Shown here piece after piece: positions 1 to 43,703 of a stretch of 64,000 nt of DNA. A model generated the notes under the pieces. The model saw only the letters and a list, made by a program, of their open reading frames with translations. It ran no database searches and was not told where the DNA came from. The position numbers and the translations under genes are program-made. This DNA comes from a virus (taxonomy: Duplodnaviria; Caudoviricetes). The stretch lies in the IMG/VR virus record IMGVR_UViG_641736227_000002. One strand, given 5' to 3'. How positions within the stretch are numbered: the first letter of the stretch is position 1; every line of letters begins with the position of its first letter.

Positions 1-243
1 TTATATCAGTTCTATGTCCGTGATCCTGATTACAGTCTTGAGTGGATCACTGTTTTTCTCTACGATCTCAAAGCAGTAATTGATCCAATCACTGTCCGTG
101 ATCTGGATGCTCCAAGACTCCTGCGGCACGTCTCCTGTGCCGTCCCAGATCTCACCAAGCTCTATTTGCCCCCCCTGCTCTACATCGGGAAGGTTGTTGC
201 CAAACTGGTCCATTGCCTGTGCTTTTTCTATTATATTATTCAT
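1..243 (-). CDS. Small acidic hypothetical protein (candidate anti-defence protein)
   Basis: 80 aa, D/E-rich, GGAGG RBS upstream; last visible gene of the leftward operon. Confidence 0.75.
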   Translation of the reverse strand: MNNIIEKAQAMDQFGNNLPDVEQGGQIELGEIWDGTGDVPQESWSIQITDSDWINYCFEIVEKNSDPLKTVIRITDIELI

Positions 244-259
244 ATTTATTACCTCCGTT

Positions 260-700
260 TTATTTTTGTTTTTCGCCTAACAATAAGTGTCCAAGGCATC
301 TTGTGAAATCGCCTGTCCATGATAAAATATCTTGGTGCAGTAATGCGCCAGGGAAAAGAAGATCTAGGATAAAAGGTGGCTGAACCGGGAATGGCTCTAC
401 TTTGTCAGGAAGGGCCGGTTCAGCAATTTTCAGCATCGTCTTCCATATTTTTTTCGCTTGTAGTTTGTTACAAGCACCTGCGGTGGCTAATACAACATCA
501 CCACCGACTTTAATTGTCGCGACATAACCGCCTTGCTCAGTTGTCAATTCCATCGTTGCTCCGTCTAGCAACTCGATAGGATCTCCCTCATTAGTGTTTC
601 TGATCAAGTTTGTTAGGTATTCGATTGTTTCATTTCGCACATCTTCCGTACCTGATACTCTATTATGTTGCGTGTTTATCGTATAATGATTAATTTCCAT
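260..700 (-). CDS. Hypothetical protein (146 aa, start MEINHY)
   Basis: Start re-called at 700 behind a GAGG RBS that overlaps the end of the upstream gene. Confidence 0.7.
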   Translation of the reverse strand: MEINHYTINTQHNRVSGTEDVRNETIEYLTNLIRNTNEGDPIELLDGATMELTTEQGGYVATIKVGGDVVLATAGACNKLQAKKIWKTMLKIAEPALPDKVEPFPVQPPFILDLLFPGALLHQDILSWTGDFTRCLGHLLLGEKQK

Positions 701-995
701 TTTTATCGCCTCTTTCTTCTCCGAGCTCAATGTTAAAAAATCTTCCATCCTTGTCCGTTCCGAGAAAACAAGGTGCTCCGTCGTTATCATACAATAGCTC
801 GTTCGGGGTGTATACCCAACCCCATGGCGCAGTAATGACTATGTCAGTTTCGTTTTTTTCGACTTCCCATCCATCCGGTATTTTTACTTCTATTTTTTCG
901 CTAAAATCTGCCTGTTCAGATTTGTTTCCGTATGTATAAATCGTTCTTTTTTCTGCGGATAAAACACCATAATTTTTATATAATTCTATTGTCAT
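690..995 (-). CDS. Small acidic hypothetical protein (101 aa, start MTIELY)
   Basis: AAGGGAG RBS before ATG at 995; tight operon spacing. Confidence 0.75.
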   Translation of the reverse strand: MTIELYKNYGVLSAEKRTIYTYGNKSEQADFSEKIEVKIPDGWEVEKNETDIVITAPWGWVYTPNELLYDNDGAPCFLGTDKDGRFFNIELGEERGDKNGN

Positions 996-1019
996 GTTAT
1001 CTTCTCCCTTCATTAATTG

Positions 1020-1433
1020 CTATCTTCCAAAAACTTCCTTCTTTAATCTCATGCAAAGAGCATTTCCGCTAATTCTCATTTGTGTGTAAAAAGATCTGTA
1101 ATACTCGTCAGAGGCTTTGTTATTTTTGCTTAAAAGCTCAATCACATCACCTGCATAGGATTCCTTTGTGATTTCAACGATTTTGTTTAAAATTTCTTCC
1201 GCTTTTTCTTTTTGTTCTTTCGGTACCATGTTTAAGTAAGATGTAAATTCTGTGCTCATTTTTTCGATAAGTTCTTTTGCCCAGGCAATCTGTTTTTCGC
1301 TGCCTTTGAGTTTTGTTATTTTCATTTTCGCTTCCCTCCATGCTTTCTTCAATGCGGAGGAAATCGTTTCTTTAAATCTTTTTACCAGCTCCCATGCTCT
1401 TTTCATGATTTTTGATAAGTTATATTTTTTCAT
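1020..1433 (-). CDS. Hypothetical protein with MKKYNLSKIMKRAW leader and KGSEKQIAWA motif
   Basis: AAGGAGG RBS; first gene after the leftward promoter; paralogous N-terminus at 1894-2051. Confidence 0.85.
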   Translation of the reverse strand: MKKYNLSKIMKRAWELVKRFKETISSALKKAWREAKMKITKLKGSEKQIAWAKELIEKMSTEFTSYLNMVPKEQKEKAEEILNKIVEITKESYAGDVIELLSKNNKASDEYYRSFYTQMRISGNALCMRLKKEVFGR

Positions 1434-1487
1434 CTTCGTTTCCTCCTTATTAACTCGTTTCCTTTACTGTAATTATAGTATAAACCA
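1330..1487. repeat. Left arm of perfect 158-bp inverted repeat
   Basis: Reverse complement of 1840-1997. An extra ~24-bp inverted match pairs 1513-1536 with 1790-1813. Confidence 0.95.
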
Positions 1488-1505
1488 TTTTTGGTTTATT
1501 GTCAA
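1477..1505 (-). promoter_or_regulatory. Sigma-A promoter TTGACA-17-TATACT with palindromic operator ATAAACCA-N4-TGGTTTAT (1480-1499)
   Basis: Read directly; 17-nt spacer. Confidence 0.85.
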
Positions 1506-1537
1506 TTCTTTTTTAAACTTTTTTCAGTTTATTTTTG

Positions 1538-1566
1538 TTGACCATTTTTATTGTGTACTATATACT
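1538..1566 (+). promoter_or_regulatory. Sigma-A promoter TTGACC-17-TATACT for the HTH gene
   Basis: Read directly. Confidence 0.75.
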
Positions 1567-1587
1567 TATATAAAAGGAGGGAAAAAG

Positions 1588-1797
1588 ATGATTGTATATA
1601 AAATTGATGTAATCGAATCTTTGAAAGAGGCAGGATATAATAGTACGAGGATTTTAAAAGAAAACATTATAGGCCAGTCCGCAATGACGAAAATCAGAAA
1701 CGGTGAGCCAGTTGGAATTAAAACGTTAGATAAGATTTGTGAATTGCTAGATATGCAGCCTGGTAACATTATCAAATATGTAGAAACGAAAAAATAA
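1588..1797 (+). CDS. Small Cro/C1 (Xre, HTH_26-like) transcriptional regulator; Aca-like candidate
   Basis: AAGGAGG RBS; 69 aa MIVYK...TLDKICELLDMQPGNIIKYV, a typical HTH_26 signature. Confidence 0.9.
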   Translation: MIVYKIDVIESLKEAGYNSTRILKENIIGQSAMTKIRNGEPVGIKTLDKICELLDMQPGNIIKYVETKK

Positions 1798-1821
1798 ACT
1801 GAAAAAAGTTTAATTCTCCTG

Positions 1822-1850
1822 TTGACTTTAGACCGTTTTTGGTTTATACT
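1822..1850 (+). promoter_or_regulatory. Sigma-A promoter TTGACT-17-TATACT with operator variant TAGACCG-N4-TGGTTTA
   Basis: Read directly. Confidence 0.85.
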
Positions 1851-1997
1851 ATAATTACAGTAAAGGAAACGAGTTAATAAGGAGGAAACGAAGATGAAAA
1901 AATATAACTTATCAAAAATCATGAAAAGAGCATGGGAGCTGGTAAAAAGATTTAAAGAAACGATTTCCTCCGCATTGAAGAAAGCATGGAGGGAAGC
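1840..1997. repeat. Right arm of perfect 158-bp inverted repeat
   Basis: Reverse complement of 1330-1487. Confidence 0.95.
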
Positions 1998-2055
1998 AAA
2001 AAATGAAAATGGCAGAACTCAAAGGAACCGAAAAACAGGTTGCTTGGGCAAATGA
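1894..2055 (+). CDS. 53-aa leader ORF whose first 36 aa match 1020..1433; out of frame with 2003..2404 because of one extra A
   Basis: MKKYNLSKIMKRAWELVKRFKETISSALKKAWREAK, then a shift at the A6 run 1998-2003. Confidence 0.65.
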   Translation: MKKYNLSKIMKRAWELVKRFKETISSALKKAWREAKNENGRTQRNRKTGCLGK

Positions 2056-2404
2056 CATCAGAAACAAAGGAATCGAATTTTGTGAAAAATATGATTTTTC
2101 TTTTGCAAAACAAAAGTTTTGTGATATGGATTCATCAAAATGGTTTATTGATGAATGGAGGGGTCTCACTAGTAGAGGAAATAAATTCGGTATGGTAGCA
2201 AACCTGATGGAACTTAACATTCAAGAAGAAACTAGGATCATTAGAGAAAAGAATGGCCGTGCAATTAAACATAAGGAGCGAGTACAGATACTTGACTCAT
2301 ATGAAAAATACCGTAACATTGATTCAGAAGTCGATTATAAAATAAACGAATTTTGGAGCGATGGTCAATATTTATGGGGTGGAAGTATTTCCGGTCAGAA
2401 TTGA
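2003..2404 (+). CDS. Hypothetical protein with KGTEKQVAWA motif (paralogue of 1020..1433)
   Basis: GGAGG upstream of ATG; ELKGTEKQVAWA versus KLKGSEKQIAWA. Confidence 0.75.
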   Translation: MKMAELKGTEKQVAWANDIRNKGIEFCEKYDFSFAKQKFCDMDSSKWFIDEWRGLTSRGNKFGMVANLMELNIQEETRIIREKNGRAIKHKERVQILDSYEKYRNIDSEVDYKINEFWSDGQYLWGGSISGQN

Positions 2405-2415
2405 GGAGGATTAAT

Positions 2416-2898
2416 ATGAAATTTGTAGATTTAAATTCGGAAATAGAAATCATGGAAAAGTCTATTGCTCGACAAATTAAAGATAGTGGTCTCACTAAAG
2501 AGCAACTAATTCAGGCCAATAATTTTAATCATATTTATGACAAGCATTTTAGTAGTAAAGACAAGCGTGAAGAAGATAATAAGGCCAAAATTGTTTTCTG
2601 GGACCTTGCAGAATCTGCTATGAAATTTGATTTCAGGACAGCCATGAGCATAGAGAGACAAAAAGATGTTCTTGACGTACTCAAAGAAGCGCAGGAAGTC
2701 CATGGTTTTCTAGTATGTGCAAACTATACCTATTACGCTTTTTCCTCCTGTTTATTTAAAGATGGAAAACAAGTAATAGCTTACTCCTGGGATGCTGTTG
2801 CAAATTGCATTGAGGATGGCGGTCTGGAAATAGTTCCTGACTACATCAAAGAAAACGAGAGTTTCAAAAAAACGGTTGAAAATTTATTGAAAGATTAG
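2416..2898 (+). CDS. Hypothetical protein (160 aa, start MKFVDL)
   Basis: GAGGAGG RBS just upstream of ATG 2416. Confidence 0.8.
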   Translation: MKFVDLNSEIEIMEKSIARQIKDSGLTKEQLIQANNFNHIYDKHFSSKDKREEDNKAKIVFWDLAESAMKFDFRTAMSIERQKDVLDVLKEAQEVHGFLVCANYTYYAFSSCLFKDGKQVIAYSWDAVANCIEDGGLEIVPDYIKENESFKKTVENLLKD

Positions 2899-2915
2899 AA
2901 TAAAATAGTTATAAT
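2887..2915 (+). promoter_or_regulatory. Sigma-A promoter TTGAAA-17-TATAAT
   Basis: Near-consensus, with no credible ORF before the terminator at ~3017. Confidence 0.7.
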
Positions 2916-2920
2916 AAAGT

Positions 2921-3020
2921 AAACGGCAGACCCATATTGGGATTTAAAATATATGATAATGCTATAGTCATGCTAATTCTGCCACTAAAAAAAGCCCCGG
3001 ATTGCTCCGAGGCTTTTCTT
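2921..3020 (+). ncRNA. Putative ~100-nt small RNA resembling a solitary CRISPR repeat (crRNA mimic candidate)
   Basis: Own promoter and terminator; CCCA-TAT-TGGG hairpin followed by ATTTAAAAT; GGCAGA (2925) and TCTGCC (2978) can pair. Confidence 0.45.
2987..3020. terminator. Intrinsic terminator, possibly bidirectional
   Basis: AAAAAAAGCCCCGG-attgct-CCGAGGCTTTTCTT. Confidence 0.8.
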
Positions 3021-3048
3021 CTGCTTATTATACATCATTTCAGAGCAC

Positions 3049-3076
3049 AAAAAAGACCGGGATTTCTCCCGGCCCT
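3049..3076 (-). terminator. Intrinsic terminator after rha
   Basis: GGCCGGGA-gaaa-TCCCGGTC-TTTTTT on the minus strand. Confidence 0.8.
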
Positions 3077-3083
3077 GAAACTA

Positions 3084-3731
3084 TTAAGCTGCAATCTTTG
3101 CACTATTATTCTGCTGTATAAACTCTTTGATCTGGTCATATCCCCAGCCGCAGTCAACCAATCCGCTCACTAAACACTCCATAGACTGCACAGCTCTCAA
3201 GTCCTCCTCTAATAAGTAATCCCTAAGATTCTCCTTTTTATCTATTCCATACTTTTCACGGAGTTGTCTTGCGTTCATCCCGAATAGTACTTTGTAAATA
3301 CAATTCGTATATGTGGAATAGGCATGACCATGCATCCTCTCATTTTCTGTAGACTGCTGTAATGCCTTTGTGAGAGATTGCCGAACCGCAATACCTTTTT
3401 CCCTTTCGATTAGTTTCCCTTGTAAAGTACGTTCCATTGCATTGAACTGTTTTATATACGCCTCTTTAAATTTCATTGCTGTTTCGCCGGTGTAACCCAT
3501 AACCAAAAGAGTGAACCCATCTCGTGTCAAATAGTACATCGGCTGCTTATGCTTCTGTTCGTTTAGATATTTTGACTCCTCAAAATTTAGGAGTCGGAAC
3601 TCTTCACTACAACCAAGTTCTCGAATATCTTTTAATACATTGTCATGCCTTTTTCCAAAAGTATTTGCAACGTCCAAACTACTAACTACTGTTTTTTCCT
3701 GTTTGTCAATTCTTTTTACTTCAACTAACAT
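3084..3731 (-). CDS. Rha-family phage regulatory protein
   Basis: SSLDVANTFGKRHDNVLKDI...YYLTRDGFTLLVMGYTG..AMKFKEAYIKQFNAME; RBS AAGGA before ATG 3731. Confidence 0.9.
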   Translation of the reverse strand: MLVEVKRIDKQEKTVVSSLDVANTFGKRHDNVLKDIRELGCSEEFRLLNFEESKYLNEQKHKQPMYYLTRDGFTLLVMGYTGETAMKFKEAYIKQFNAMERTLQGKLIEREKGIAVRQSLTKALQQSTENERMHGHAYSTYTNCIYKVLFGMNARQLREKYGIDKKENLRDYLLEEDLRAVQSMECLVSGLVDCGWGYDQIKEFIQQNNSAKIAA

Positions 3732-3813
3732 TTTATAATTCCTTTCCTTGATTATTATTTGCATGTAAGGTAGTTAAAAAAATAAGCATACCGGAGGATT
3801 CCAGATGCCCATT

Positions 3814-4554
3814 CTATTTCTTTCTATTTTTGTAAAGAGCCGTGCAGGTCTTTTTCCCGGCATAGCTGCCTTTCTTCCATCCGAGCTGCTTCCAGTATCT
3901 TTCCAACTTTTTCTGTGTTGCTGGTCCCCATTCTCCGTCTACCGCAATGTCTGCACCAGATGCTAGTGAATTTAGTTTTCCCTGCATCCACCGTATTGCA
4001 TTTTTAGAGGATGTCTTTTTTACGGTTGTGTATTTTACACTTTGCCCTCCGATAGCATTTTTAAAAGTTTTCCAACCATTGTTGTCTGCTCCGATCCATG
4101 GCATAGGGCAATTCTTCCCGTTTACGTCCCAGTGCCGGATCACGTGGGATGCTGGAACGCCATATTTCTGCATTAGGAATTTTACCAGTTCGATTGTCTG
4201 GTCCCTAACATTTGCTGGCACTTTCCTAGTAACGTTGCACATCTCTACAGATAAGCTGTTTGCATTCGTGCACTTCTTATAGTAGTTTCCCGCAGCTCCC
4301 ACGGTGGAATAACAGCCGCCGACTGCCCAGGCCACCCGGTTTACTGCCACGGACTTATAGACGTATTTCCCGCCGTCTACAAAGTAGTGTGCGGACGCTC
4401 CCTTGGATGCTCCCTGGAAGTATTTACAGTTATTCAAGGCCGTATCTTTAGAGTTTCCGGTATAATGCACAACGATATAATCTATATCCTTTGTGCTTCT
4501 TTTGCCGCCGTAGTTGCTTTTATGGGCAAACTTCTTTTTAAATTTTAATGCCAT
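3814..4554 (-). CDS. Endolysin, N-acetylmuramoyl-L-alanine amidase (Amidase_2) with C-terminal peptidoglycan-binding domain
   Basis: IVVHYT, SAHYFVD, VIRHWDVNGKNCP; C-terminal VDGEWGPAT. Confidence 0.92.
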   Translation of the reverse strand: MALKFKKKFAHKSNYGGKRSTKDIDYIVVHYTGNSKDTALNNCKYFQGASKGASAHYFVDGGKYVYKSVAVNRVAWAVGGCYSTVGAAGNYYKKCTNANSLSVEMCNVTRKVPANVRDQTIELVKFLMQKYGVPASHVIRHWDVNGKNCPMPWIGADNNGWKTFKNAIGGQSVKYTTVKKTSSKNAIRWMQGKLNSLASGADIAVDGEWGPATQKKLERYWKQLGWKKGSYAGKKTCTALYKNRKK

Positions 4555-8040: not shown

Positions 8041-8757
8041 TTATAAGCTCCCTCCTCTGTAATCTACACTCACTGTTCCAGTGCCTGTGAAAACAAGATA
8101 GTTATCTCCTTCACTAAGCCATATGTCAAATACCTTGCTCCTTCCCAAAGGAAGGCTATATATCTTCTCGTTGTATGTCACCTGCATAGCTGCGCTGCAC
8201 TCGATCACGGGCACGATCTTCTTTCTGCGCCCAGGAATATAGAGTTTATAGCTGCCGTTTATCTTCAAATCCTTATACTCTCTCACAATCCCTGTTTCAA
8301 AATTGAAGTCGTCCCAGGTCCAGTCTTCCAGACTGCTATATTTTTCATACTTATATGGGTCAACCTCGCCTGACAGTGTGATCTTGCTCTCTGCCTTCTC
8401 CGACTTCTCAGAATCCAGTTTGAGGCGTCCTATGTAGTAGAACGCAGGATCACTGTCCAGGAAGATTTTAAACTTCTGGCCTACCAAATAATTTGCAATC
8501 TCGGAGACTTTAGAGTTCCAATCAAAGTAATCTTTGTCCAGCTGGTCAAACTCCATGGTGAGGGATCTTTGCTTGTATTTTACATCTCCCGGAGTCATTG
8601 CCTCAGTGAGATCCAGTGAGCCATCAGCTCCTGGTATGTCCTGCTCATACGTCTTTGCCTCCGGGAATCCAAGGGTGATCGACAACCACCCCAGATTCCA
8701 ATCTCTAAGCGTATGCTTGCCACCAATTAATACGCCTAATGTTCCTCTATCTTCCAT
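8041..8757 (-). CDS. Distal tail protein (Dit)
   Basis: Directly after TMP; IPGADGSLDL and DPAFYYIGR; ends YRGGSL. Confidence 0.85.
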   Translation of the reverse strand: MEDRGTLGVLIGGKHTLRDWNLGWLSITLGFPEAKTYEQDIPGADGSLDLTEAMTPGDVKYKQRSLTMEFDQLDKDYFDWNSKVSEIANYLVGQKFKIFLDSDPAFYYIGRLKLDSEKSEKAESKITLSGEVDPYKYEKYSSLEDWTWDDFNFETGIVREYKDLKINGSYKLYIPGRRKKIVPVIECSAAMQVTYNEKIYSLPLGRSKVFDIWLSEGDNYLVFTGTGTVSVDYRGGSL

Positions 8758-11700
8758 TACACGCCTCCTCTTGCTTTTCTATCTGCCATGCTGTTCAATC
8801 GGCTATCCATAAATGGGGCCAGCGTCCTTGCCGCCTCTCGGCCCTCTATGTTTGTTACAACTTCTATCTTTTCTGGCCCTGTGTATACCGTCTTCTCTAT
8901 TGTCGTTGTACCTCCTCCGGCATAAACAACCTGTGGCTGCACACTGGCTGTGATCTTTCCCATCTGCTTTGATACCGCTGTCTGCATCCGACTTTGCAAC
9001 TCCGGTATATTTAGCTTTGCTTTTGCAAAACGTGCCGCCATGGTATCCGCAACAGTTTCAACCTGCCGATACAGTCTCGGTGCCTCTTTCTCCTGCCCCT
9101 TTTCCGCTCCCTGGATCGTAAACTTTCCGATCTGGGCGAATACACGAGATGGGGATTTTATTTTCAGTTCTTTTTTTGCGGCTTTTACAATATCTTTGCA
9201 AAGCTTTTTCATGGCTTTGCTCAGATTCCGGGTTTCTCCGGTTATTCCAGCTGCCAAACCTTTAGCAACGTTAGCCCCGGCCTTTTTCATCTCGGCATTC
9301 AGATTATCTGTTTCTTTTTTTATTGCTGCTTGATATTCCTTATTAATCTTCTCAAAGTCGTCTTTAAAGAAGGACTCTGAAAAGCTTTCTGCCATGGATT
9401 GCTGTTTGTTCCACTTGTCCGTATAAGCTTTCTGCTCTGCCGCCGTAAGGGACTGGAACCAGGCCATATACTGTCGCCCTTCTTCCACATCCATGCCAAG
9501 GATACGCTGCATCATGGAATCAGGAATTTTGTTTTCCAAGGCTTTCAGGCGTTTCTGGTAGTCTTCTATGTCATAGAGGTTCTGGTCCAGATCATAAAGA
9601 CTGCCGTAACTCTGTTGCTTGCTTGTAAGATTGTCCCGCAGGCTCTTGATCTCGTTGTACTGTTCCTGGTACTTCTCTGAAAGCTCCTGGATCTTCTCCT
9701 CGGCAATCTTGGTCAGGCGGTCCGCTTCTTTCTCAAAGGCGGTATTATAGGCGTTTGCGGCCTTTTCTCCGGCCTCTTTTAGCTGCTTCTCCTTCTTTGC
9801 ATTCGCAGCTTTAAGATCCTTTAACTCCTGTTTAAGCTTGGCTTTCTTTTTCTTATTTTCCTTTTTGTTGCCAAGCTTATCTATTCTTTTCTGCAGCTTT
9901 GCTTCGGCCTTTTCGCTTGCCTTTACCTGCTTGTTGTATGCCTGGTCAATGATCTGCTGCACTGTCTCGCTTGACCGCTGTTTTGCGATGCTTAGGGAGT
10001 CGCTCAGACCACTCAAGAGATTACTTCCGATCTCGGAGTAATTGCCTTTATATGTAGCATTCTTTGCCGCAGACAGTGCTGTAGAAATGACTCCTTGCAT
10101 TTCTGCTACAAGCTCACTCTGCCCCTCTCTGACACCCTTTGCAATGCCTTTCGGGATCGTTTCACCTTTTAGGATTTTGAACATCTTCCCTGGTGACGGG
10201 ATGCCTTTCTTCGCAGCGCCTATTGTTACATTTATCACCTTCATGGCTGCTTTTGCTGCTTTCCCGGCATTATCCGTCATTCCGGATGCTATACCAAGAG
10301 TAAGGAATTTTCCGATTGCATTTTTAAACAGAGTAGATGGAGAATGGATGCCAGCCTCTGCTTCTGCCGCTGCCTTGGCCTGCTGAATTACCTTCCGTGC
10401 CGCAGAAGAAACAACGCCGGAGTTCGCATTGATTCCGGAGGCGATTCCAGAGGAAATGTTCTTTCCGACACTATTGAATCCACCTGTGCTTACTTTCTTC
10501 GCTCCATTCACAGCACTCTGCGCCGCCGTCTTGATCTTTCCTTTGTTTGCAATCACGCCGCTGGCAGTTTTGCTTGAAAGCTCTTTTCCTTTTGCGGTAG
10601 CCTGCCCGTTCTTGGAAGAAATGCCAGAGACATATGCGCTGCTTAGCTTCGCTCCTGCCGCCTTGGCCTTAGAGGCACCGCCAGAAAATCCGCTTGCTGC
10701 AGAACTACTCACTTTTGCAGTTGCCGCCTTGGCCTTCCCTGCGCCCTTTGAAAGTTCATTCGTAAAAGAACTCTCTGTTTTTTTTCCCGCGCCTGAGTTA
10801 TTCGTCGCTGGAATTTTTGAATTTTTCTTGATTGAATCGGTATTTTTCTTTGTTTCTCCGACTGCCTTAGCCGATTCTGTTTTAAAAGGTTTAAAAGAAG
10901 ATGAAGCCGCACCACTGTTGTCTACAGGCTTCACCTTCATATTTGTTTCTATTTTCTTTGCAGAGTCTCCTGTGCTTTTTGCTACGCCGTCAATAACGTT
11001 CTTTACACCAAAGGTGTCTGTTGATAATCCCTGACCGCTCATCATTTGAGTGACTGCATTGTCTACGCTGGTCTTTCCTTGCGCTACCTTTGTAGCCAAC
11101 TCTGTAGGGATCTGTGCCCCTTGTAGTCCTGCCTTATCAACCGCTGCCTGGAAATCCATCAGATTTGCTAATGCTTTTGCTGCTTCTGCTGGCTTCATAC
11201 TTCCAGAAGTAATTCCATTAGCCAAATATTCCGGTACCTGAATACCACCATTTTGTGCCTTTGCCTTTAAATCCTCAAAATTCACGAGATTCTTTACTGC
11301 TGATACCGAGGTCGGTACCGCATACTCACCCGACTGGATTCCCTCTGCAATACTGTTCGGAACTTGCACACCCTCAGATTTTGCCTTTTCAATCATGTCA
11401 GACCAGTTGATTCCATTTTTCAACTGTTGTGCTGCTGCCTTAAAGGAAATAGACCCGTCTGCCATACCCTGTGACAGATACTCCGGTATCTTCATTCCAG
11501 CTTCTTGCATCTTTGCAAGATCTTCGCTGTTTACCAGATCATCCAGCTTTATTAGCTGTTTTAGTTCTTTTCCGGTCGTCGGATTAGCATAGATACCATC
11601 CTGAATCCCTTTCCCAATGGATTCCGGTATTTTAGATGCTTTTATTCCTGCCTCTTTAGCAAGATTATCCAGGTTCGCCTTGAAATCATTGAAGTTTGTT

Positions 11701-14246
11701 TGCGCGGTAAATTTATCCGTCCATGTTCCCAACTCACCATATGCGGACTCCATGTTCTTTTTACTTTTATCTACAGCATCGTCTGCATCATCTAAAGCTT
11801 GATTATATCTATCCAGAGCAGCTCCTGCCTTCTGAAGTTCCAGATTCCCAGACCCAAGACCATATTTATCCTTCAGTTTGTTAAACTTCTCTTGCGCTTT
11901 ATCGCGCCTTCGCAACGCTTCTGTTTGATTATTGATTGCTTTTTCATGCTCTATTTCTGCCTCGGCAACCTTTTTCGCTGATTTTTCCATTCCAGCCTGA
12001 TAAGCCTTTGCCATTGCTTGTTCTTTCAGAGCATCAATATTATTTTTTATTGCTTCTGTGGACTTATTTAACTTATCTCTCTCTGCGTCATACTTTAGCC
12101 CAAGTTCTGGCATGAGATCGTTCAGTTCTTTTACAACACTTTTTATCCTTGCCTTTGTCCCTGCGCTCTTATTTTCTACCTTTATTAACCTTTGTAGCTG
12201 GTTAAACAGGTTATCCGCTTCTACTCCCTGTGCTCTGGTAGATTCCACAGTTTTTTCATTCTCTTTGTGAAGTGACTTTATGGATGCTCCCATATCATCC
12301 TGTGCTTTCTTCACTCTTTCACAAGTCTTTCCAAACTTATCGGCTTCTGTCTCTGCCCGTGGAACAGTCAAGGCATATGCTGCAATCCCTGCTGTCAAGG
12401 CCCCTGCTGCCAGTACGACCATGCCGATGGGTCCACCAAGGGCAGTACATGCAGCATTAAAGGCTCCCGTTGCCGCTGTAGCAAGTGTAATCTTCCCCGT
12501 AAAAATTCCAACCACAGTCTGTAATGCTGTAAGTCCTCCCTGCTGTGCCACAAGAGTGATTGCGTTCGCTTTTTCCAGAGCATTGAGTGCTTTTAATGCT
12601 GTCCCCAGTGCGCTTACACTTCCAGAAACGGCCTGTGCAGCTTTGTAGCCTTTAAGCACAACCAAAAGACTTGTTGCTAACGGAAGTGCCGTCTGCATGT
12701 TCTCTCCTAGGAACTTCGCCGCAGATCCCAATACTTTCAGACCGCCACCTGCGACTGTCTTTGCCGCAGAGCCAAGATTTTTGACCGTGGTAATCGTCTC
12801 TTTCGGAATGATGGATTTAAGCCCGTGCGCTTCTATCTGGTCCGCCAGTCCTCCGATCGCATCCGATGCCGCTGCCACTCCATCCGCAAGCGGTCCTTTG
12901 AGTTCATCTCCCACTGCAATTCCGAGCGCAGTAAACTTATTTCCAAGTATTTTGATCCGACTTTCTAGCGTCTTGTACCGCTGCCCAGCTTCGTTCGTAA
13001 GGGCCTTATTTTCGTTCCACGCATTATTGCCGATCTTTAAGGCTTCTGTAAATGTCCCAGATGCTCCCGCTGCTCTTAACAGTGCATCCCTCATACGGAT
13101 ATCGGAAAGCCCCATATCGTCCAGGACTTTTATTGCACTGCCGCCACTCTTATTTACCTTATCCAAGCCTTGGATGAAGGAAATAATAGCTCCTGCTGCA
13201 TCTTCTTTAAATGCCTTTTTGAACTGATCCGCCGTCATGCCAGACACTTTCGCAAAGTCGTTTAATTCGTCACCGCCCTTGGTAGTTGCAAGATTCATTT
13301 TCGACATTAGGGTAGAAAATGCCGTTCCACCAGCTTCTGCCTCGATCCCTACAGAAGATAACGCCCCAGCAAAGGAAAGTATATCTGCTTCTGACATTCC
13401 AACCTGATGTCCAGCTCCTGCAAGTCTAAGAGCCATATCCGTAATCTCTTGCTCTGTTGTGGCCAGATTATTTCCTAAATCTACAATTACAGATCCCAGC
13501 CGTCCAAACTGCGTCTGTGGCATCCGTGTGATGTTTGCCAGCCTTGCCAGAGAGGTTGCCGCCGTATCTGCGGACATGTTCGTAGAATCTCCAAGCATAA
13601 CCATGGTTTTAGAGAATCCTGCGATATTCTTCGTCTTAATGCCAAGCTGTCCGGCTGCCTCTGCTACCCCTGCGATCTCATTTGCAGAGGTTGGCATCTC
13701 TTTCGACATATTTAAAATGTCTTTTCGCATGATATTCAGTTCTTTATCCGTGGCATTTACTGTCTTTTTTACACCAGCAAAAGCACTTTCAAACGAAATA
13801 CTTGCTTTCAAAGATGCCGCACCGCCCGCAATAACTGCGGCTCCGGTTGCTTTCATTCCGGTAGATACCGCAGGTTTTATCTTGCTGGCAGCACCAGACC
13901 AATATTTCTCTGCATTTTCCGCACTTTTCTTCGCTTGTGCCTCCGTTTGCTTATAAGACCGCTTCTGTTCCTCTCCGGCCTTTTTCGTGCTCTGCGAGGC
14001 TTTCTCTCCGGCTTGCTTTGCGGCTGTTTCCGCTGTCTTCCCGGCTTTTTTTGCCGCCTGTTCTGTTGTTTTGCTTGCTTGTTTTACAGAGGTTTCTGCG
14101 GACTTTGCCGCCTGCTTGGTCGCAGTTTCTGCGGATTTCGCCGCTTTTTTCGTCTCTGTGTCCAGTGTTCTCGATAGTTGTTTGAGTTCTTTTTCGGCTT
14201 TTTCCGAATTTAACTCAACTTCGATTTCAATACTTCCGTCAGGCAT
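8757..14246 (-). CDS. Tape measure protein (TP901 family), 1829 aa
   Basis: FESAFAGVKKT, AEAGGTAFS, IHSPS and IKSPSRVF motifs; Ala/Lys-rich helical repeats. Confidence 0.95.
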   Translation of the reverse strand: MPDGSIEIEVELNSEKAEKELKQLSRTLDTETKKAAKSAETATKQAAKSAETSVKQASKTTEQAAKKAGKTAETAAKQAGEKASQSTKKAGEEQKRSYKQTEAQAKKSAENAEKYWSGAASKIKPAVSTGMKATGAAVIAGGAASLKASISFESAFAGVKKTVNATDKELNIMRKDILNMSKEMPTSANEIAGVAEAAGQLGIKTKNIAGFSKTMVMLGDSTNMSADTAATSLARLANITRMPQTQFGRLGSVIVDLGNNLATTEQEITDMALRLAGAGHQVGMSEADILSFAGALSSVGIEAEAGGTAFSTLMSKMNLATTKGGDELNDFAKVSGMTADQFKKAFKEDAAGAIISFIQGLDKVNKSGGSAIKVLDDMGLSDIRMRDALLRAAGASGTFTEALKIGNNAWNENKALTNEAGQRYKTLESRIKILGNKFTALGIAVGDELKGPLADGVAAASDAIGGLADQIEAHGLKSIIPKETITTVKNLGSAAKTVAGGGLKVLGSAAKFLGENMQTALPLATSLLVVLKGYKAAQAVSGSVSALGTALKALNALEKANAITLVAQQGGLTALQTVVGIFTGKITLATAATGAFNAACTALGGPIGMVVLAAGALTAGIAAYALTVPRAETEADKFGKTCERVKKAQDDMGASIKSLHKENEKTVESTRAQGVEADNLFNQLQRLIKVENKSAGTKARIKSVVKELNDLMPELGLKYDAERDKLNKSTEAIKNNIDALKEQAMAKAYQAGMEKSAKKVAEAEIEHEKAINNQTEALRRRDKAQEKFNKLKDKYGLGSGNLELQKAGAALDRYNQALDDADDAVDKSKKNMESAYGELGTWTDKFTAQTNFNDFKANLDNLAKEAGIKASKIPESIGKGIQDGIYANPTTGKELKQLIKLDDLVNSEDLAKMQEAGMKIPEYLSQGMADGSISFKAAAQQLKNGINWSDMIEKAKSEGVQVPNSIAEGIQSGEYAVPTSVSAVKNLVNFEDLKAKAQNGGIQVPEYLANGITSGSMKPAEAAKALANLMDFQAAVDKAGLQGAQIPTELATKVAQGKTSVDNAVTQMMSGQGLSTDTFGVKNVIDGVAKSTGDSAKKIETNMKVKPVDNSGAASSSFKPFKTESAKAVGETKKNTDSIKKNSKIPATNNSGAGKKTESSFTNELSKGAGKAKAATAKVSSSAASGFSGGASKAKAAGAKLSSAYVSGISSKNGQATAKGKELSSKTASGVIANKGKIKTAAQSAVNGAKKVSTGGFNSVGKNISSGIASGINANSGVVSSAARKVIQQAKAAAEAEAGIHSPSTLFKNAIGKFLTLGIASGMTDNAGKAAKAAMKVINVTIGAAKKGIPSPGKMFKILKGETIPKGIAKGVREGQSELVAEMQGVISTALSAAKNATYKGNYSEIGSNLLSGLSDSLSIAKQRSSETVQQIIDQAYNKQVKASEKAEAKLQKRIDKLGNKKENKKKKAKLKQELKDLKAANAKKEKQLKEAGEKAANAYNTAFEKEADRLTKIAEEKIQELSEKYQEQYNEIKSLRDNLTSKQQSYGSLYDLDQNLYDIEDYQKRLKALENKIPDSMMQRILGMDVEEGRQYMAWFQSLTAAEQKAYTDKWNKQQSMAESFSESFFKDDFEKINKEYQAAIKKETDNLNAEMKKAGANVAKGLAAGITGETRNLSKAMKKLCKDIVKAAKKELKIKSPSRVFAQIGKFTIQGAEKGQEKEAPRLYRQVETVADTMAARFAKAKLNIPELQSRMQTAVSKQMGKITASVQPQVVYAGGGTTTIEKTVYTGPEKIEVVTNIEGREAARTLAPFMDSRLNSMADRKARGGV

Positions 14247-19106: not shown

Positions 19107-20690
19107 TTATTCAACTTTAATTTCTGTCCCGTCCTTGAAAACTACTGTTACTTCTTCCTTGCTTTTTACGACAATCTTTTCCACAAGGCTGCTCCAAAGT
19201 GCCTCGTCAAATTCGGTTATCAGTTCCGATTGTCCGTTGAGAACTGTGATGAATCTACCCATCTGCTCGTACTTAGCATCTTTTTCAGATATTGTAGTAC
19301 AGACAGTATCGTATTCTTCTTTTAGCTTATTGTATCGCTCTACCAAGGAATTATACTTTTTGTTGTACTCGTCCTGGTTCTGAGCCACTCTCGCATTCTC
19401 CGCTACAATATTCTGCGTCATTTCCACCGCAATAGCTATCTCTTCTTCCAAGGATTCTTTCTTTTTAACAAGGTCTGCCTTGTCACAAAGTGTAGTTCGT
19501 ATCAGTTGAAGATTATCAAGGATTTCTGCTTTTTCTGTAATAAGCTGATTCATCGCCTTTACAAAATATTCTTTGATTTCAAACTCCGTCAAATGTGGAG
19601 TTGAGCATCCGGTCTTGTGCCTGAACTTGTTATTGCACTGATAAATAATTCTCCTGTATTTATCGTTAGAATGCCAAACCTTGCTGCCATACCAACCACC
19701 ACACTCAGCACACTGCACCTTGGAAGAAAAGATTGACACTCCGCTGTACCTTGTACTTCCTTTGCCTCTTCGCTGAATTTCAGCTTGTACTAAGTCGAAT
19801 AACTCCGGTTCAATAATTGCCGGATGATTGTTTTCTACATAATACTGTGGGACTTCACCCTCATTGGTTTTAGTCTTTTTCGTAAGAAAGTCCACTGTGT
19901 ACGACTTCTGCAAAAGTGCATCACCCTTATACTTTTCGTTAGTTAGAATACTGCGAACTGTTGACTGGCTCCAGTTATCTTTACTTGCAGGAGTTTTCAA
20001 TCCTCTCTTTGTCAATTCATTTGCTATGGAATGCATTGTAAGTCCATCTAAGAATAGCTTATAAATCAGTTTTACCGTTTGTGCCTGTTCCTCATTGATT
20101 ACAAGACTGCCATCTGGGGCTTTATCATAGCCGAGAAATCTGCTGTAGGCAAAGCTGACTTTTCCATCTGCAAAACGCTTTCTGTGTCCCCATGTGACAT
20201 TCTCCGAAATGGATCTACTTTCTTCCTGTGCAAGAGAACTCATAATGGTAAGTAGTAGTTCTCCCTTGCTGTCAAACGTCCATATGTTCTCTTTTTCAAA
20301 GTAGCATTCAATATTGTGTTCTTTTAGTTTTCTGATGGTAGAAAGGGAATCAACAGTATTTCTTGCAAATCGGCTGACTGACTTTGTAATAATAAGGTCA
20401 ATCTTTCCGGCAAGCGCATCAGCAATCATAGTATTGAAGCCATCTCTATGCTTCGTATTTGTTGCACTGATTCCTTCATCAGAATATAGTCCAGCAAATT
20501 CCCAATCATCTCTGCCTTTTATATAATTTGTATAATAGTCTACCTGTGCAACATAACTTGTAGTTTGATCCTCATGGTCTGTACTTACACGGGCATATCC
20601 TGCAACCTTTCGTTTTTTCTTACTGTCCACAGGCTTGGCAGTAAATTTATTGATGGTTGCAGGTATTTGCGTTACTTTTCTTTTCGCCAA
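19107..20690 (-). CDS. Large serine recombinase
   Basis: YARVST, KSVSRFARN, recombinase domain, Zn ribbon and coiled coil. Confidence 0.95.
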   Translation of the reverse strand: MAKRKVTQIPATINKFTAKPVDSKKKRKVAGYARVSTDHEDQTTSYVAQVDYYTNYIKGRDDWEFAGLYSDEGISATNTKHRDGFNTMIADALAGKIDLIITKSVSRFARNTVDSLSTIRKLKEHNIECYFEKENIWTFDSKGELLLTIMSSLAQEESRSISENVTWGHRKRFADGKVSFAYSRFLGYDKAPDGSLVINEEQAQTVKLIYKLFLDGLTMHSIANELTKRGLKTPASKDNWSQSTVRSILTNEKYKGDALLQKSYTVDFLTKKTKTNEGEVPQYYVENNHPAIIEPELFDLVQAEIQRRGKGSTRYSGVSIFSSKVQCAECGGWYGSKVWHSNDKYRRIIYQCNNKFRHKTGCSTPHLTEFEIKEYFVKAMNQLITEKAEILDNLQLIRTTLCDKADLVKKKESLEEEIAIAVEMTQNIVAENARVAQNQDEYNKKYNSLVERYNKLKEEYDTVCTTISEKDAKYEQMGRFITVLNGQSELITEFDEALWSSLVEKIVVKSKEEVTVVFKDGTEIKVE

Positions 20691-22465
20691 TTTCTGCCAC
20701 GCTCCTTCCTCATATTTTTCATACGCTGACTCATCTCGGCCTTACGCTCCGGTGTCCATTTTTCTTTCATAATCTGTCGCATATGTTCTTTTTGTTCTTC
20801 TGAGCAATGCCTGCCGCCACGCTTCGGTGGTTCAAAGGTCATCGGTGTTACTATTCCATCTTTTCCAACAACTTCTAGCTGATAGCCGTCAATGTTTATT
20901 TGCTCTACTTTTTCTGCAAAAACCTTCTCGTCCCATTCTGCCATTCCGAGAACTTCTGCAAGCTGAGATTTCAAAAAATCTTCTCTTAGTCCTTGTGCCT
21001 TACAAGCGGTTCTTTCAGCACATCGCCAATAATAAAATTTGCCATCTTCCGATGAAGTTGATGGCTGAGTGCATCGCCTATAATTGCAGCCACAATGCTT
21101 GCATTTTAATTTACTTGTAAATACCGATGCACCTTTTGGATTTGTATTCTTCTTTCTTCTTTGCTTAGACACCTTATCTCGATATTCTTTAGTCCAACAA
21201 TCTTGATGACCCGTATTCTCGCAAGGCCTAGTAACAATAGTTCCATCTTGCAAATGAATCTCCAGAGTATACCTCTTTGGAACATTGATAAAGTCTACCT
21301 TATCAAGGAAAACTTCATCATCAAATTCATCAATATCTAGAACCTCGGCAAGAACCTTTTTCATATTATCCTGGTTAATACTTGCTCCTACTTCGCAGTG
21401 TCCGCCTTTTTTCTTTCTTGAACCACATACCCAAAACTCTAATCTTTTTCCGTTTGGAGTTCGTGGCTTTCTGGTGTTATGCATATAGCTGACACCACAG
21501 TAAGGGCATTTAATCTTTCCCGTAAAACAAGAAATGTTAAGGCTCTTATTTGCCAACGCTCCCAGCTGTCTGCGTCTTGCCATTTCATCTTGTATATACT
21601 GAAATGTCTCAAGGTCAATAATTGCCTCGTGGGTATCTTCCACCCAATACTGTGGCAATTCTCCACGATTTTGCTTACGCTTTTTATTGATGGGGTCTGA
21701 TATAAATTCCTTCTGAAAAAGCATGTTACCCGTATAAGTAATGTTGGTTAATATCTTCTTGATATTAGAATCTCTCATCACGCAGCCTTGCCTAGTACGA
21801 ATACCCTCAGCTTCAAGTTCTCTTTCCGTTTCCAGTCTTGATTTTCCATCAAGAAAATTTTGATAAATTCTCTTTACCACCTCTGCTTCTTTCGGAACAA
21901 TGATTAACTCATCTCCTTGCCATTCATATCCGTAGATGTTGAAGTGTCCACTTGCATTTAGCATACCTTCCTGCATCCTTTTACGAATGCCCCACTTCAC
22001 ATTATCCGATATAGAACGGCTCTCTTCTTGAGCAAAAGAAGCAAGTATGGAAAGCATCAACTCTCCATTACCACTTAAAGAATTGATATTCTCTTTTTCA
22101 AATCTGACCTCAATTCCTAAATTTTTTAGATGTCTTACTGTTTCAAGCAAATCCACTGTATTTCTTGCAAATCGCTGTATTGACTTTGTAAGAATAATAT
22201 CAATTTTTCCTTGCTCAGCATCTGCAATCATTCGTCTGAACTCATCACGCTTGACTGTACTTGTTCCGCTGATACCATTATCGGCATATACTCCAGCAAA
22301 TTCCCAGTCCGGATTCTTTTGAATGAAATCATTGTAGTAACTTATCTGTGCAGAAAGCGAGTGATTCATTCGCTCTGATTCCATTGAAATTCTAGCGTAT
22401 GCAGCAACCTTTTTTCTTTTCTTTATAGTTGGTATCGTACTCTCAATCTTGGTAATTGTACGCAT
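20672..22465 (-). CDS. Large serine recombinase with two Zn-ribbon domains
   Basis: YARISM, KSIQRFARN; CPYC and CKHC ribbons. Confidence 0.95.
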   Translation of the reverse strand: MRTITKIESTIPTIKKRKKVAAYARISMESERMNHSLSAQISYYNDFIQKNPDWEFAGVYADNGISGTSTVKRDEFRRMIADAEQGKIDIILTKSIQRFARNTVDLLETVRHLKNLGIEVRFEKENINSLSGNGELMLSILASFAQEESRSISDNVKWGIRKRMQEGMLNASGHFNIYGYEWQGDELIIVPKEAEVVKRIYQNFLDGKSRLETERELEAEGIRTRQGCVMRDSNIKKILTNITYTGNMLFQKEFISDPINKKRKQNRGELPQYWVEDTHEAIIDLETFQYIQDEMARRRQLGALANKSLNISCFTGKIKCPYCGVSYMHNTRKPRTPNGKRLEFWVCGSRKKKGGHCEVGASINQDNMKKVLAEVLDIDEFDDEVFLDKVDFINVPKRYTLEIHLQDGTIVTRPCENTGHQDCWTKEYRDKVSKQRRKKNTNPKGASVFTSKLKCKHCGCNYRRCTQPSTSSEDGKFYYWRCAERTACKAQGLREDFLKSQLAEVLGMAEWDEKVFAEKVEQINIDGYQLEVVGKDGIVTPMTFEPPKRGGRHCSEEQKEHMRQIMKEKWTPERKAEMSQRMKNMRKERGRNWRKEK

Positions 22466-22489
22466 GAAATCAACCTCCTTCCTTACACA

Positions 22490-22523
22490 TATATCACTCT
22501 AAAGCCCACTTATATCAAGTCAA
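22490..22523 (-). promoter_or_regulatory. Motif II copy 1 (CTTG-N12-TTTAGAGTGAT)
   Basis: Also at 42437-42470 and 43640-43667 with identical spacing. Confidence 0.75.
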
Positions 22524-22686
22524 TATCGGCAAATAATGTACCCAAAGTTGGCTGATATTTTTCCTGCATTTTTGTATCAATTATGGTGTACTCTTCCTTA
22601 GTTATAAGTCCATCATCAAGCATCTTTTTTGCTATACTCATGGTTATCTGATACAGCTTTTCCTGTTTCATCTGCTCCTTACTCAT
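22510..22686 (-). CDS. Small SHOCT-like recombinase-associated protein
   Basis: MLDDGLITKEEY motif; GGAGG RBS. Confidence 0.8.
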   Translation of the reverse strand: MSKEQMKQEKLYQITMSIAKKMLDDGLITKEEYTIIDTKMQEKYQPTLGTLFADIDLI

Positions 22687-23107: not shown

Positions 23108-23124
23108 AAGTAGAACCACCTCCT

Positions 23125-23160
23125 AAGTAACAGGCAAAGAAAATGGCTCAAATTTTAACT
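23125..23160 (-). promoter_or_regulatory. Motif I copy 1 (AGTTAAAA-N13-CTTTGCCTGTTACTT), putative phage-sigma promoter
   Basis: Identical boxes and spacing at 54557 and 59122. Confidence 0.8.
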
Positions 23161-23168
23161 TTTCACGC

Positions 23169-23208
23169 AAAAAAATGCCCGTCAGAGAAATTAATCTCCA
23201 ACGGGCAT
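23169..23208 (-). terminator. Terminator after the endolysin
   Basis: ATGCCCGT..ACGGGCAT stem plus T tract. Confidence 0.8.
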
Positions 23209-30354: not shown

Positions 30355-31001
30355 AGGCATCCCTCCCTATAGCGGAATGTGGTATTGCCACTGCTTTCAA
30401 CCTTGATGCTGTTATTTCCGCGAGTTAGCTGCAGCTCCGGAATCACCCATGTACCGCTGCTCAGTGTCTTATGAAAAGTATCTGTTCCTATCTTCCATGA
30501 AAGTGCTGTATCAGCTGTTGTTATCACAGTAGGAACTACAGGCATATAATCACTTACAAGCACCACTGTTCCGCTTCCAGAAAAAACAACCTCCGTCATA
30601 TCCACATGGTATCTATAGGAATCTGCATCACTGCTTTCCATCACAAGCTGACCTTTTCCGGTAAGCGGATCATAGGAAGATGACAGCTGCAAAGTTCCCA
30701 CTGCATAAAGATTTGGTTCTTCGCTCGTCCTTACTCTACACAGTCTTCCGGCATAGCGATTACTCATCTTGGCAGTAAGTTCATCAAACTTTACTCTTGT
30801 TCCAAGCATAGAGAATGTCAAAGTAAAGGCTCTCGGTTTGAAAGATACCAAGCCAAGAGCCTCGTTAAATCGGATAGGAGAATTGCGTCCTGGTACAGTA
30901 ACCGTTTCTGCCTGTGACTGCGGTATCGGAAAATCGACCGTTTCTCTTACCCATCCATTCTTAAGCATGGATTCATCATCAATATAAATATCCGGTATCA
31001 T
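30351..31001 (-). CDS. Distal tail protein (Dit)
   Basis: Follows TMP; VPGRNS; ends YREGCL. Confidence 0.85.
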   Translation of the reverse strand: MIPDIYIDDESMLKNGWVRETVDFPIPQSQAETVTVPGRNSPIRFNEALGLVSFKPRAFTLTFSMLGTRVKFDELTAKMSNRYAGRLCRVRTSEEPNLYAVGTLQLSSSYDPLTGKGQLVMESSDADSYRYHVDMTEVVFSGSGTVVLVSDYMPVVPTVITTADTALSWKIGTDTFHKTLSSGTWVIPELQLTRGNNSIKVESSGNTTFRYREGCL

Positions 31002-34000: not shown

Positions 34001-34183
34001 TAACAGTTTCTGTTTCTGAGCAAGCAGATTTGTATTTGTAGGATCTAGTTTTAGAAGTCTTTCAACATCCTTTAATGCAGACTGCGTATTTTTAATCTGT
34101 CCGTTGACTCCCTTAAGGGCAGTCTGCAGCTTGGTAGTATCACCGCCAATTTCGACAGTGATACCTTTGATTCTGTTTGCCAT
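30998..34183 (-). CDS. Tape measure protein (TP901 family), 1061 aa
   Basis: MANRIKGITVEIGGDT, FESSMSQV, and 11-aa W/F-periodic repeats. Confidence 0.95.
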   Translation of the reverse strand: MANRIKGITVEIGGDTTKLQTALKGVNGQIKNTQSALKDVERLLKLDPTNTNLLAQKQKLLTQAIGETKEKLATLKTAAEQANEQLQKGEISQEQYDALQREIAETEAELKRLESQASKTNQTLTKIGEVGSKVESFGNGVTNVGKKVSVASAAVTAMGGAAVKTAADFESSMSQVQATMGITKDSMSKVNGQSVNTMDTLSDLAKTMGAKTAYSASECAEALNYLALAGYDTQQMCDTLPIVLNLAAAGNIDLASASDMVTDAMSALGMEVKDADKMVDQMAKTASTTNTSVGQLGEGILTIGATAKSVKGGTAELNTALGILANNGIKGAEGGTHLRNVILSLQNPTDGASKLMNQLGVSVYDSEGNMRSLNDILGDLNSSMDGMTSEEKANIISKIFNKTDLSSVNALLANTGDTWTDLQTAIENSGGAAQQMADTQLDNLKGQLTILKSAVEGFAISIGEALMPMIKNIVAKVQSFVDWLNNLDEGTRQVIVKIGLFVAALGPVLVILGTVISKVGVAMQAFSKFGLKITSLISNAGGLSGVMGKVGAAIGGISAPVVAVVAIIGTLVAAFIHLWKTNEEFRDSIIAIWNRIKEIFSGFAKGITDRLNALGFDFQNFKEVVSAIWNALCSFLAPVFEGVFTQIANILEGVLGVITGILDVFIGIFTGNWSQVWEGVKGIFGSVWDFIKNTFTNYMNAIRNIADVVLGWFGTSWNEVWTGIKDFFVGIWTGISTFFTNLWEGIKNTVQTGIMFIASILEAAFDIITLPFRFIWENCKEIVIAVWDAIKEKVTTVINAVSSVVSTVMNAIKTVFTTVWNAIKSVVTTVVNAIKTVVTTVFNAIKNTATTVWNAIKTAVTTPVNAIKNTVSTVFNAVKSTVSSVFNSIKSTATSVWNGIKSAIITPIEAVKNKVKSVVDAIKGFFSGMKLSLPKIKLPHFKVTGKLSIAPPSVPHLSIDWYKEGGIMTKPTAFGMNGSSLMMGGEAGAEAILPLSGFYKQLESMLDSKLNMSGMEKYLAIIADNSSKGIYLEDGTLVGHLLPAIDDGLGKQQKITRRLAL

Positions 34184-42395: not shown

Positions 42396-42436
42396 ATTCG
42401 TGTACCTCCTTGCTTTCTTTCCTTTTGGTAGTACTA

Positions 42437-42470
42437 TATATCACTCTAAAAGCACATAATAGCAAGTCAA
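42437..42470 (-). promoter_or_regulatory. Motif II copy 2
   Basis: TATATCACTCTAAA-N12-CAAGTCAA on the + strand. Confidence 0.75.
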
Positions 42471-42516
42471 TTACTGGCATATATGTAACAATTATTTCAG
42501 AAAAAATCTGTGTATT

Positions 42517-43604: not shown

Positions 43605-43639
43605 GCTGAGTACCTCCTTTATTTTTCGGTACTGTATTA

Positions 43640-43667
43640 ATCACTCTAAACCACATATATATCAAGC
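43640..43667 (-). promoter_or_regulatory. Motif II copy 3
   Basis: ATCACTCTAAA-N12-CAAG on the + strand. Confidence 0.7.
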
Positions 43668-43703
43668 GATATCTGTGAATATCGAAGTAGAATATTGACC
43701 GAT

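Follow-up and report, generated by a model that had tools for sequence, protein, structure and literature searches.

Enterobacterial prophages encode trans-acting small RNAs, among them DicF and IsrK. In Listeria prophages, anti-CRISPR loci consist of an HTH gene and small genes beside the endolysin. Another group of phage RNAs is built on the CRISPR repeat itself. Racrs, the solitary repeat units of phages, have high sequence identity to the repeat, and the published screen for them rests on that similarity (Camara-Wilpert et al. 2023, PMC10651486). Such a unit is recognized by a promoter at most 250 bp upstream and by the absence of cas genes or an array beside it in the mobile element. The CreA, CreR, and Cracr RNAs carry recognizable degenerate repeats, and the screen for viral Cracrs requires at least 9 PAM-proximal pairs; in the same work, some candidates have predicted I-B targets (Liu et al., bioRxiv 10.1101/2024.10.29.618823). 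Both Racrs and crRNA-like regulators of phages are kinds of RNA already in the literature.

The locus discussed here lies at positions 2887-3017 of the window, the whole stretch of 64,000 nucleotides that was analyzed, which makes up the opening 64 kb of a provirus record 98,269 bp long. A first-pass annotation had read it as a stand-alone RNA of about 100 nt, shaped like a single type I-B crRNA and perhaps acting on the Cascade of the host. Like the Racrs, it is a small-RNA unit of a cas-less phage, with a strong promoter and a possibly repeat-like hairpin, in a phage that is targeted by host CRISPR; the promoter ends 6 nt from the predicted start of the RNA, and the 98-kb record is free of arrays. 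Unlike the Racrs, it reaches 12/20 identity to the repeat in the hairpin and tail, lacks the host handle ATTGAAAT, and has a tail that varies and pairs internally. With CreA, CreR, and Cracr it shares the concept of Cas proteins being reprogrammed by an RNA from a phage. Those RNAs have repeat-derived flanks and at least 9 pairs with their target, whereas this one has a single, weakly repeat-shaped hairpin, a structured "spacer," and a non-significant best match of 8 nt in the 190-nt region upstream of cas6. In layout it also resembles DicF and IsrK: the predicted transcript is short and independent, has a promoter and an intrinsic terminator to itself, and is encoded in an accessory region of the prophage with probable expression in the lysogen. 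It differs from them in having no sequence or Rfam relationship to either and in belonging to a Lachnospiraceae anaerobe.

A conserved promoter-to-terminator unit

The unit opens with a sigma-70-type promoter on the plus strand (2887-2915) that is made up of a -35 box TTGAAA (2887-2892), a 17-nt spacer, and a -10 box TATAAT (2910-2915), as the first-pass annotation had described. In a promoter scan it is an 11/12 match and the top site within 2000-4000, while the count of promoter sites alone is no better than chance (6 found versus 6.0 expected). The -35 box overlaps the end of an upstream ORF of 160 aa (2416-2898, plus strand), which is outside the RNA unit and has its stop codon at 2896-2898. 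The RNA is predicted to begin 6 nt past the end of the promoter, at about 2921-2923, and a plus-strand transcript of about 97 nt (2921-3017) would end at a bidirectional intrinsic terminator. The terminator, earlier placed at 2987-3020, is found at 2987-3017 and acts on both strands by prediction; an A-run (2987-2993) is followed by the hairpin GCCCCGGA-TTGC-TCCGAGGC (2994-3013) and a T-run (3014-3017). It looks stronger on the minus strand, and a simple terminator scan missed it because the stem has one mismatch.

The earlier statement that the unit holds no credible ORF is upheld. The sole ORF of at least 30 aa is a TTG-started frame of 78 aa that reads through both terminators, and short ATG frames on either strand are without conservation in the homologue alignments. 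A type I antitoxin or another known small RNA had been named as an alternative identity for the element. There is no conserved small hydrophobic ORF on either strand, an Rfam scan of the window gave no match at gathering score and only sub-threshold matches driven by the terminator, and ARAGORN called no tRNA or tmRNA.

Homologues were collected by exact and degenerate pattern scans of IMG/VR and metagenome contigs, and from contigs encoding a neighboring protein family, one member of which has Anaerostipes caccae given as its source. The module recurs from promoter to terminator in 11 sequence variants, with one copy per prophage and differing flanking genes. Because the whole module recurs in this number of variants and in different gene contexts, it is beyond chance, and the unit does stand alone as had been proposed. 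The prophage of the window is also present in a 3.59-Mb sequence (L055, CP102254.1), where the gene order is kept and the RNA element is identical. Among the aligned variants the -10 box is invariant or nearly so, and the -35 box, at a fixed spacing, is TTGACA in most and otherwise TTCGCA or TTTGCA. Almost no change is seen in the terminator or in the 5' 20 nt of the RNA, and the 65 nt between promoter and terminator are conserved like the promoter, with a mean column identity of 89%. Searched with a covariance model (R1), the 98-kb record yields a single full copy (98.9 bits, E = 3.5e-19) and each related prophage locus one full-length match, with no paralogue elsewhere. Pattern scans of genome contigs returned no copies, and a search of GenBank phages returned nothing beyond one terminator-like match of 35 nt. 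A pattern in which the loop was left free produced 38 matches in marine phage contigs, all of which belong to one conserved and unrelated coding stretch, and these were set aside. As judged from its sequence and its recurrence, we take 2887-3017 to be a genuine, previously unannotated small-RNA gene of temperate Anaerostipes phages.

The RNA is predicted to be well folded, at -28.7 kcal/mol for 2922-3022 (z = -3.1). The first helix, P1, would be formed by GGCAGA (2925-2930) and TCTGCC (2978-2983), both read on the plus strand, and encloses the mini-hairpin P2, CCCATATTGGG (CCCA-TAT-TGGG, 2931-2941, plus strand), which is the stem formerly described as repeat-like. The first-pass annotation had pointed to both pairings, and both belong to the minimum-energy fold of the window RNA and of 10/10 variants folded (z-scores -1.3 to -5.3). 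P1 pairs are invariant save for one G-C to G-U change. In P2 the three inner pairs are invariant, and the outer C-G pair is lost through a G to A change in the four variants of the L053 type. The A/U-rich tail that follows, ATTTAAAAT (2942-2950, plus strand), forms the 5' side of a weak hairpin, P3. Among homologues the tail also occurs as ATTTAAAGT, ATCTTAAAT, and ATCTTCAAT, and the third pair of P3 (alignment columns 24-35) is C-G in four cases, U-A in three, U-G in two, and U-U in one.

The internal region, or "pseudo-spacer" of the earlier reading (2951-2977, plus strand), has nearly invariant blocks, ATAATGC(T/C)AT and TAATTCTGC, and between the former and TAAT lie 8-9 nt that are free to vary. 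It is predicted to fold into one or two small hairpins, with a single hairpin in the window variant. A further hairpin that starts from AAUGC stays paired with 3' arms that differ between variants, and in the L053, L067, and L068 variants the whole takes on a four-helix, cloverleaf-like fold. A tRNA-like reading of this cloverleaf was rejected, as the loops are too small and neither ARAGORN nor Rfam supports it. In the internal hairpins 90% of cells are paired, versus 38-53% when the 3' partners are slid, and two pairs have changed on both sides. Support from covariation is thin, with the observed score reached by 26 of 500 shuffles, since the variants are close relatives and P1 and P2 hardly vary.

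The RNA gene is found in an accessory island that has the lysis genes on one side and the end of the prophage on the other. The 160-aa ORF upstream of it has no match in Pfam, PHROG, NCBIfam, or PDB and is unrelated to the upstream gene of L052 and L001. Other prophages carry an unrelated gene of 147-149 aa at this position, and in most of them the RNA lies 3' of that gene, with the endolysin gene facing it directly; the window has its member of the 147-aa gene family 2.2 kb from the RNA, on the other strand. On the far side of the RNA, the window has a convergent Rha-like regulator (3084-3764, minus strand; PF09669, E = 3.7e-34) with its own terminator (3076-3053), beyond which come the endolysin (3814-4554) and then tail genes. 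The Rha-like gene is missing between RNA and endolysin in L001 and L052, where the terminator hairpin of the RNA directly follows the convergent endolysin gene and serves as a common terminator. Contigs assembled from RNA libraries of two studies, made from samples containing this sequence, cover the upstream same-strand genes (2000-2927), which suggests that the accessory island is transcribed. These contigs stop at 2916 and 2927, others span 3006-3474, and none spans 2928-3005. The uncovered stretch is neutral on the existence of the RNA because such libraries usually lose small RNAs; from its promoter, the RNA would be expected to be transcribed. The island itself (window 1-2900) holds an HTH_26 gene and six small ORFs, which belong to no family in Pfam, PHROGs, NCBIfam, or PDB. 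Its placement between endolysin and prophage end is typical for anti-defense or lysogenic-conversion genes.

Host CRISPR repeats and candidate targets

Host repeats were read from the arrays that abut prophages in sister loci, where three repeat types and four repeat variants were recovered. One type, GATAAACA(AT/AA/GT)AACAAGAGTTGTATTGAAAT, adjoins cas6 (in L101 at 11840-12631), a Cas7-family gene, cas3, and two unassigned genes, which together make a type I-B-like operon. Another, GATTAATAAAAACATTAGATGTATTGAAAT, adjoins a Cmr (type III-B) operon, and the third ends in ATATTTAC. The first-pass annotation had started from the general rule that repeats of this kind end in a short stem and an 8-nt handle, and the rule is true of both the I-B and the III-B repeats of this host. 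They are 30 nt long and end in a 4-bp stem, a 3-nt loop, and the handle ATTGAAAT, in the form ACAA-GAG-TTGT-ATTGAAAT or ACAT-TAG-ATGT-ATTGAAAT. The stem geometry is held by compensatory changes between these two types, and the handle is constant in the repeat types that adjoin cas or cmr genes.

The crRNA-like shape that had been noted by eye survives in part. The window RNA has the same hairpin geometry as the host repeat, with a 4-bp stem, a 3-nt loop, and an A/U tail, and when the two are anchored on the hairpin, 12 of 20 positions are identical, with no identity upstream. This anchored score is equalled at 25 of 196,498 positions of the 98-kb record (about 1.3e-4), in a test that was post hoc. 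A global alignment of the 5' 33 nt of the RNA to a host repeat gives p = 0.015. The resemblance in sequence does not hold up, as local alignments of five RNA variants to the four repeat variants, with either strand, do not improve on those of shuffled sequences (smallest p = 0.088 in 40 tests). The high identity that marks a Racr is thus lacking against all four host repeat variants, for which p is at least 0.088 and the anchored identity over the variants compared is 8-12 of 20. The P2 hairpin is also tiny and generic, and is down to 3 bp in four variants.

A Cas6-type handle had been proposed to begin at 2942. This is not supported, on three counts: the exact host handle ATTGAAAT is in none of the 11 RNA variants, the tail varies, and it co-varies with downstream bases as one side of a hairpin. 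Arrays with a repeat containing the motif of the RNA were found in none of the genome, metagenome, or viral collections scanned, the Rfam CRISPR-DR models do not match the element, and the 98-kb record contains neither an array nor a copy of the host repeat. Between the array leader and the RNA there is neither significant similarity nor significant complementarity. Pairing of the RNA in antisense to the repeat was considered and rejected, as a 10-nt near-complement occurs in the L062 variant alone (p ~0.09) and is unconserved. The phage has no cas genes, and the crRNA-mimic reading as a whole is weakly supported.

The pseudo-spacer had been suggested to steer host Cascade onto a promoter, for example that of the cas genes, through partial matches. 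It is mostly conserved and folded, and its 3' end is clamped to the 5' end of the RNA by GGCAGA/UCUGCC in 10/10 variants folded. The best match in the cas6 upstream region (190 nt, same contig, L062) is 8 nt long with p = 0.28, so the suggested targeting of a cas promoter is not borne out in this region. Within the 98-kb record, a lone 13-mer at 37821 is the only protospacer-like match; it is a chance match and on the wrong strand for pairing. Exact matches of at least 12 nt number 2 in the record, versus 1.5 expected. With 161 translation-start regions of the record as candidate partners, the RNA gives duplex energies that do not improve on those of shuffled RNA, and no second repeat is present downstream of the pseudo-spacer.

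Possible roles of the RNA

The reading that we favor, with a probability of roughly one half, is a structured, trans-acting prophage sRNA with a regulatory or decoy function. In the lysogen, transcription from a near-consensus sigma-A promoter would give an RNA of about 97 nt, ending at the bidirectional intrinsic terminator. The P1 clamp of 6-7 bp would tie the 5' end to the sequence that immediately precedes the terminator, giving a closed, compact body in which P2 and one or two small, fast-evolving hairpins are enclosed. Such an RNA would act in trans through its invariant P1-P2 module. A protein partner would be somewhat likelier than pairing to an mRNA, because the invariant bases are mostly in helices. 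The RNA would be neither cut by Cas6 nor loaded into Cascade as a guide, and it is probably an ordinary phage regulatory RNA, not a CRISPR decoy or guide. On this reading it is a useful but ordinary addition, a hitherto unannotated family of small RNAs from the accessory islands of Lachnospiraceae prophages that are common in the human gut.

A CRISPR-related role may be kept alive by the shared hairpin geometry, by the anti-defense-like position, and by the conflict of the phage family with host CRISPR, discussed below. One form of it is a Racr-like decoy that copies the shape and not the sequence of the host I-B/III-B repeat. By binding or being cut by host Cas6, such an RNA could titrate Cas6 or seed aberrant complexes, so that CRISPR stays silent in the lysogen. 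The hairpin starts about 10 nt from the 5' end, as in the 30-nt repeat, and the match in geometry, the rarity of its anchored score, and the global alignment of the 5' 33 nt all point this way, although the anchored test was picked after the resemblance had been seen and 24 other sites in the record score equally. Host repeats themselves keep their stem geometry through compensatory changes. The outer stem pair is lost in four RNA variants. An island with an HTH gene, small ORFs, and an endolysin neighbor resembles known anti-CRISPR loci, and the phage family is targeted by host spacers. The strong promoter directly upstream in a cas-less phage is as in described solitary repeat units (PMC10651486), for which high repeat identity is expected; local alignments at the level of shuffles, the absence of ATTGAAAT from the 11 variants, and the co-variation of the tail with downstream bases all argue against a decoy of this type, and we consider it unlikely. 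If the RNA were nevertheless a shape-only repeat mimic, screens that rely on repeat similarity would miss such RNAs. The fuller proposal, in which a phage inserted at the junction of leader and first repeat makes a shape-only Cas6-decoy RNA that silences the CRISPR system of its lysogen, is quite unlikely. Least probable of all, and only barely credible, is a guide of the CreR, CreA, or Cracr kind, in which a handle and pseudo-spacer cut out by Cas6 would take Cascade to a promoter by partial pairing. Phage crRNA-like regulators have been described, I-B candidates included (bioRxiv 10.1101/2024.10.29.618823), and on the surface the order of elements, with promoter, hairpin, about 37 nt, and terminator, would fit. 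The 8-nt match upstream of cas6 falls short of the 9 or more PAM-proximal pairs of the published screen, and the pseudo-spacer is folded with its 3' end paired to the 5' end. The guide would also have no second repeat, a handle that differs from that of the host, and one chance 13-mer as its sole protospacer-like match in the 98-kb record.

Alternatively, the transcript may be a by-product, with promoter and bidirectional terminator acting at the level of DNA and transcription to insulate lysogen-expressed accessory genes from the convergent late (lysis) operon. The terminator is common to the RNA and the convergent endolysin gene in L001 and L052 and is stronger on the minus strand, as an insulator might have it. 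An insulator would not need 65 conserved nt, however, and here they are conserved like the promoter (89%), with a near-invariant 5' 20 nt and maintained pairing, which weakens this reading and makes it very unlikely. An RNA antitoxin of a type I or type III toxin-antitoxin pair is improbable to a further degree. Type I modules adjoin CRISPR arrays and lie in prophages of Clostridioides difficile, according to one report (PMC5961336), and the RNA is 3' of the conserved 147-149-aa gene in most prophages. In the window that gene family is 2.2 kb off on the opposite strand, no conserved small hydrophobic ORF overlaps the RNA, a 20-codon minus-strand frame of the window shrinks to 1-6 codons in other variants, and there are no tandem repeats of the kind found in type III antitoxins. 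The trans-acting prophage sRNA thus remains the reading that we prefer.

Apparent prophage attachment at CRISPR arrays and other features

At its right end the prophage carries an 80-aa gene, a terminator, and a leader-like stretch of about 110 nt ending in GTTTCAT. This leader-like arm lies just outside window position 1, and the first repeat of an array is always next to it, in at least six genomic contexts. The arrays are accompanied by the type I-B-like operon, the type III-B operon, PTS regulator genes, DUF3783 and PTS_EIIC genes, or LRR_5 and DUF2201 genes, or are made up of the third repeat type; orphan arrays are among them. The junction of prophage end and array is found in L055 (4700-5070), L057, L058, L060-L063, L101, L104, and L105. 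Where three loci share the same prophage sequence, they part from one another precisely at the first spacer, and spacers and host flanks are wholly unlike between identical prophages. Two contigs, each about 38 kb long, have no more than the initial 10-17 nt of a repeat after the leader-like arm (L001 7000-7140 and L103 11290-11560), and then a tyrosine integrase and early genes. We read these two contigs as a putative free-phage form, and the leader-like arm with its half repeat would therefore be attP.

The flanking arrays look like those of the host, and the junction like the attachment site, because spacers and flanks differ between identical prophages and the putative free form has half a repeat; from these junctions, integration appears to occur where the leader of a host array meets its first repeat. 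No copy of leader or repeat is present inside the 98-kb record, and the other prophage end was not found in it. A full-text literature search returned no report of a leader/repeat junction as an attachment site, which is weak evidence of novelty. In Clostridioides difficile, type I-B CRISPR arrays are located in prophages, as two reports describe (PMC4173771, PMC4556805). The present loci are like these in joining I-B-type arrays to prophages of gut Clostridia and unlike them in that identical prophages have wholly different spacers and host flanks and that the putative free-phage form has half a repeat.

Spacers of the flanking arrays match phages of the same family at 100% identity (L001 468-501, L103 20308-20341) and the 98-kb record at 89-97% (82252-82286 and 84039-84071, beyond the window). 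Because the array spacers match the phage family, the hosts are actively targeting this phage group. With arrays abutting the prophage and spacers matching its family, these phages are, as read from the matches, in direct conflict with host type I-B and III-B CRISPR. Attachment at the junction would put 38 kb of phage between the leader region of the host and its array, and hosts with such split arrays hold spacers against the same phage family. This attachment-site lead may be more testable than the RNA finding.

Several other features of the record deserve mention. Two adjacent large serine recombinases are found amid structural genes (window 19107-22465, minus strand), tail genes of the tape-measure type occur twice (8757-14246 and 30998-34183), and the last gene, at the record end (97448-98269), resembles by eye a Mrp/ParA-type ATPase of the host. 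As recombinases stand in the middle of structural genes, tape-measure genes are doubled, and the last gene is host-like, the provirus record, labeled "100% complete," is probably two tandem elements plus host DNA. Dispersed direct repeats, 36-54 nt in length, also occur as two families, CTAAGTAACAGGCAAAGAAAA... and ATATATCACTCTAAA..., which are intergenic at operon starts and may be shared promoter or regulator sites. They are found at 23123-23176, 54555-54608, and 59120-59173, and further at 22489-22524, 42436-42471, and 43636-43671. Finally, a gene for a LlaJI-type restriction endonuclease (PF09563; window 61842-63116, minus strand) adjoins that of a 401-aa CGNR zinc-finger protein.
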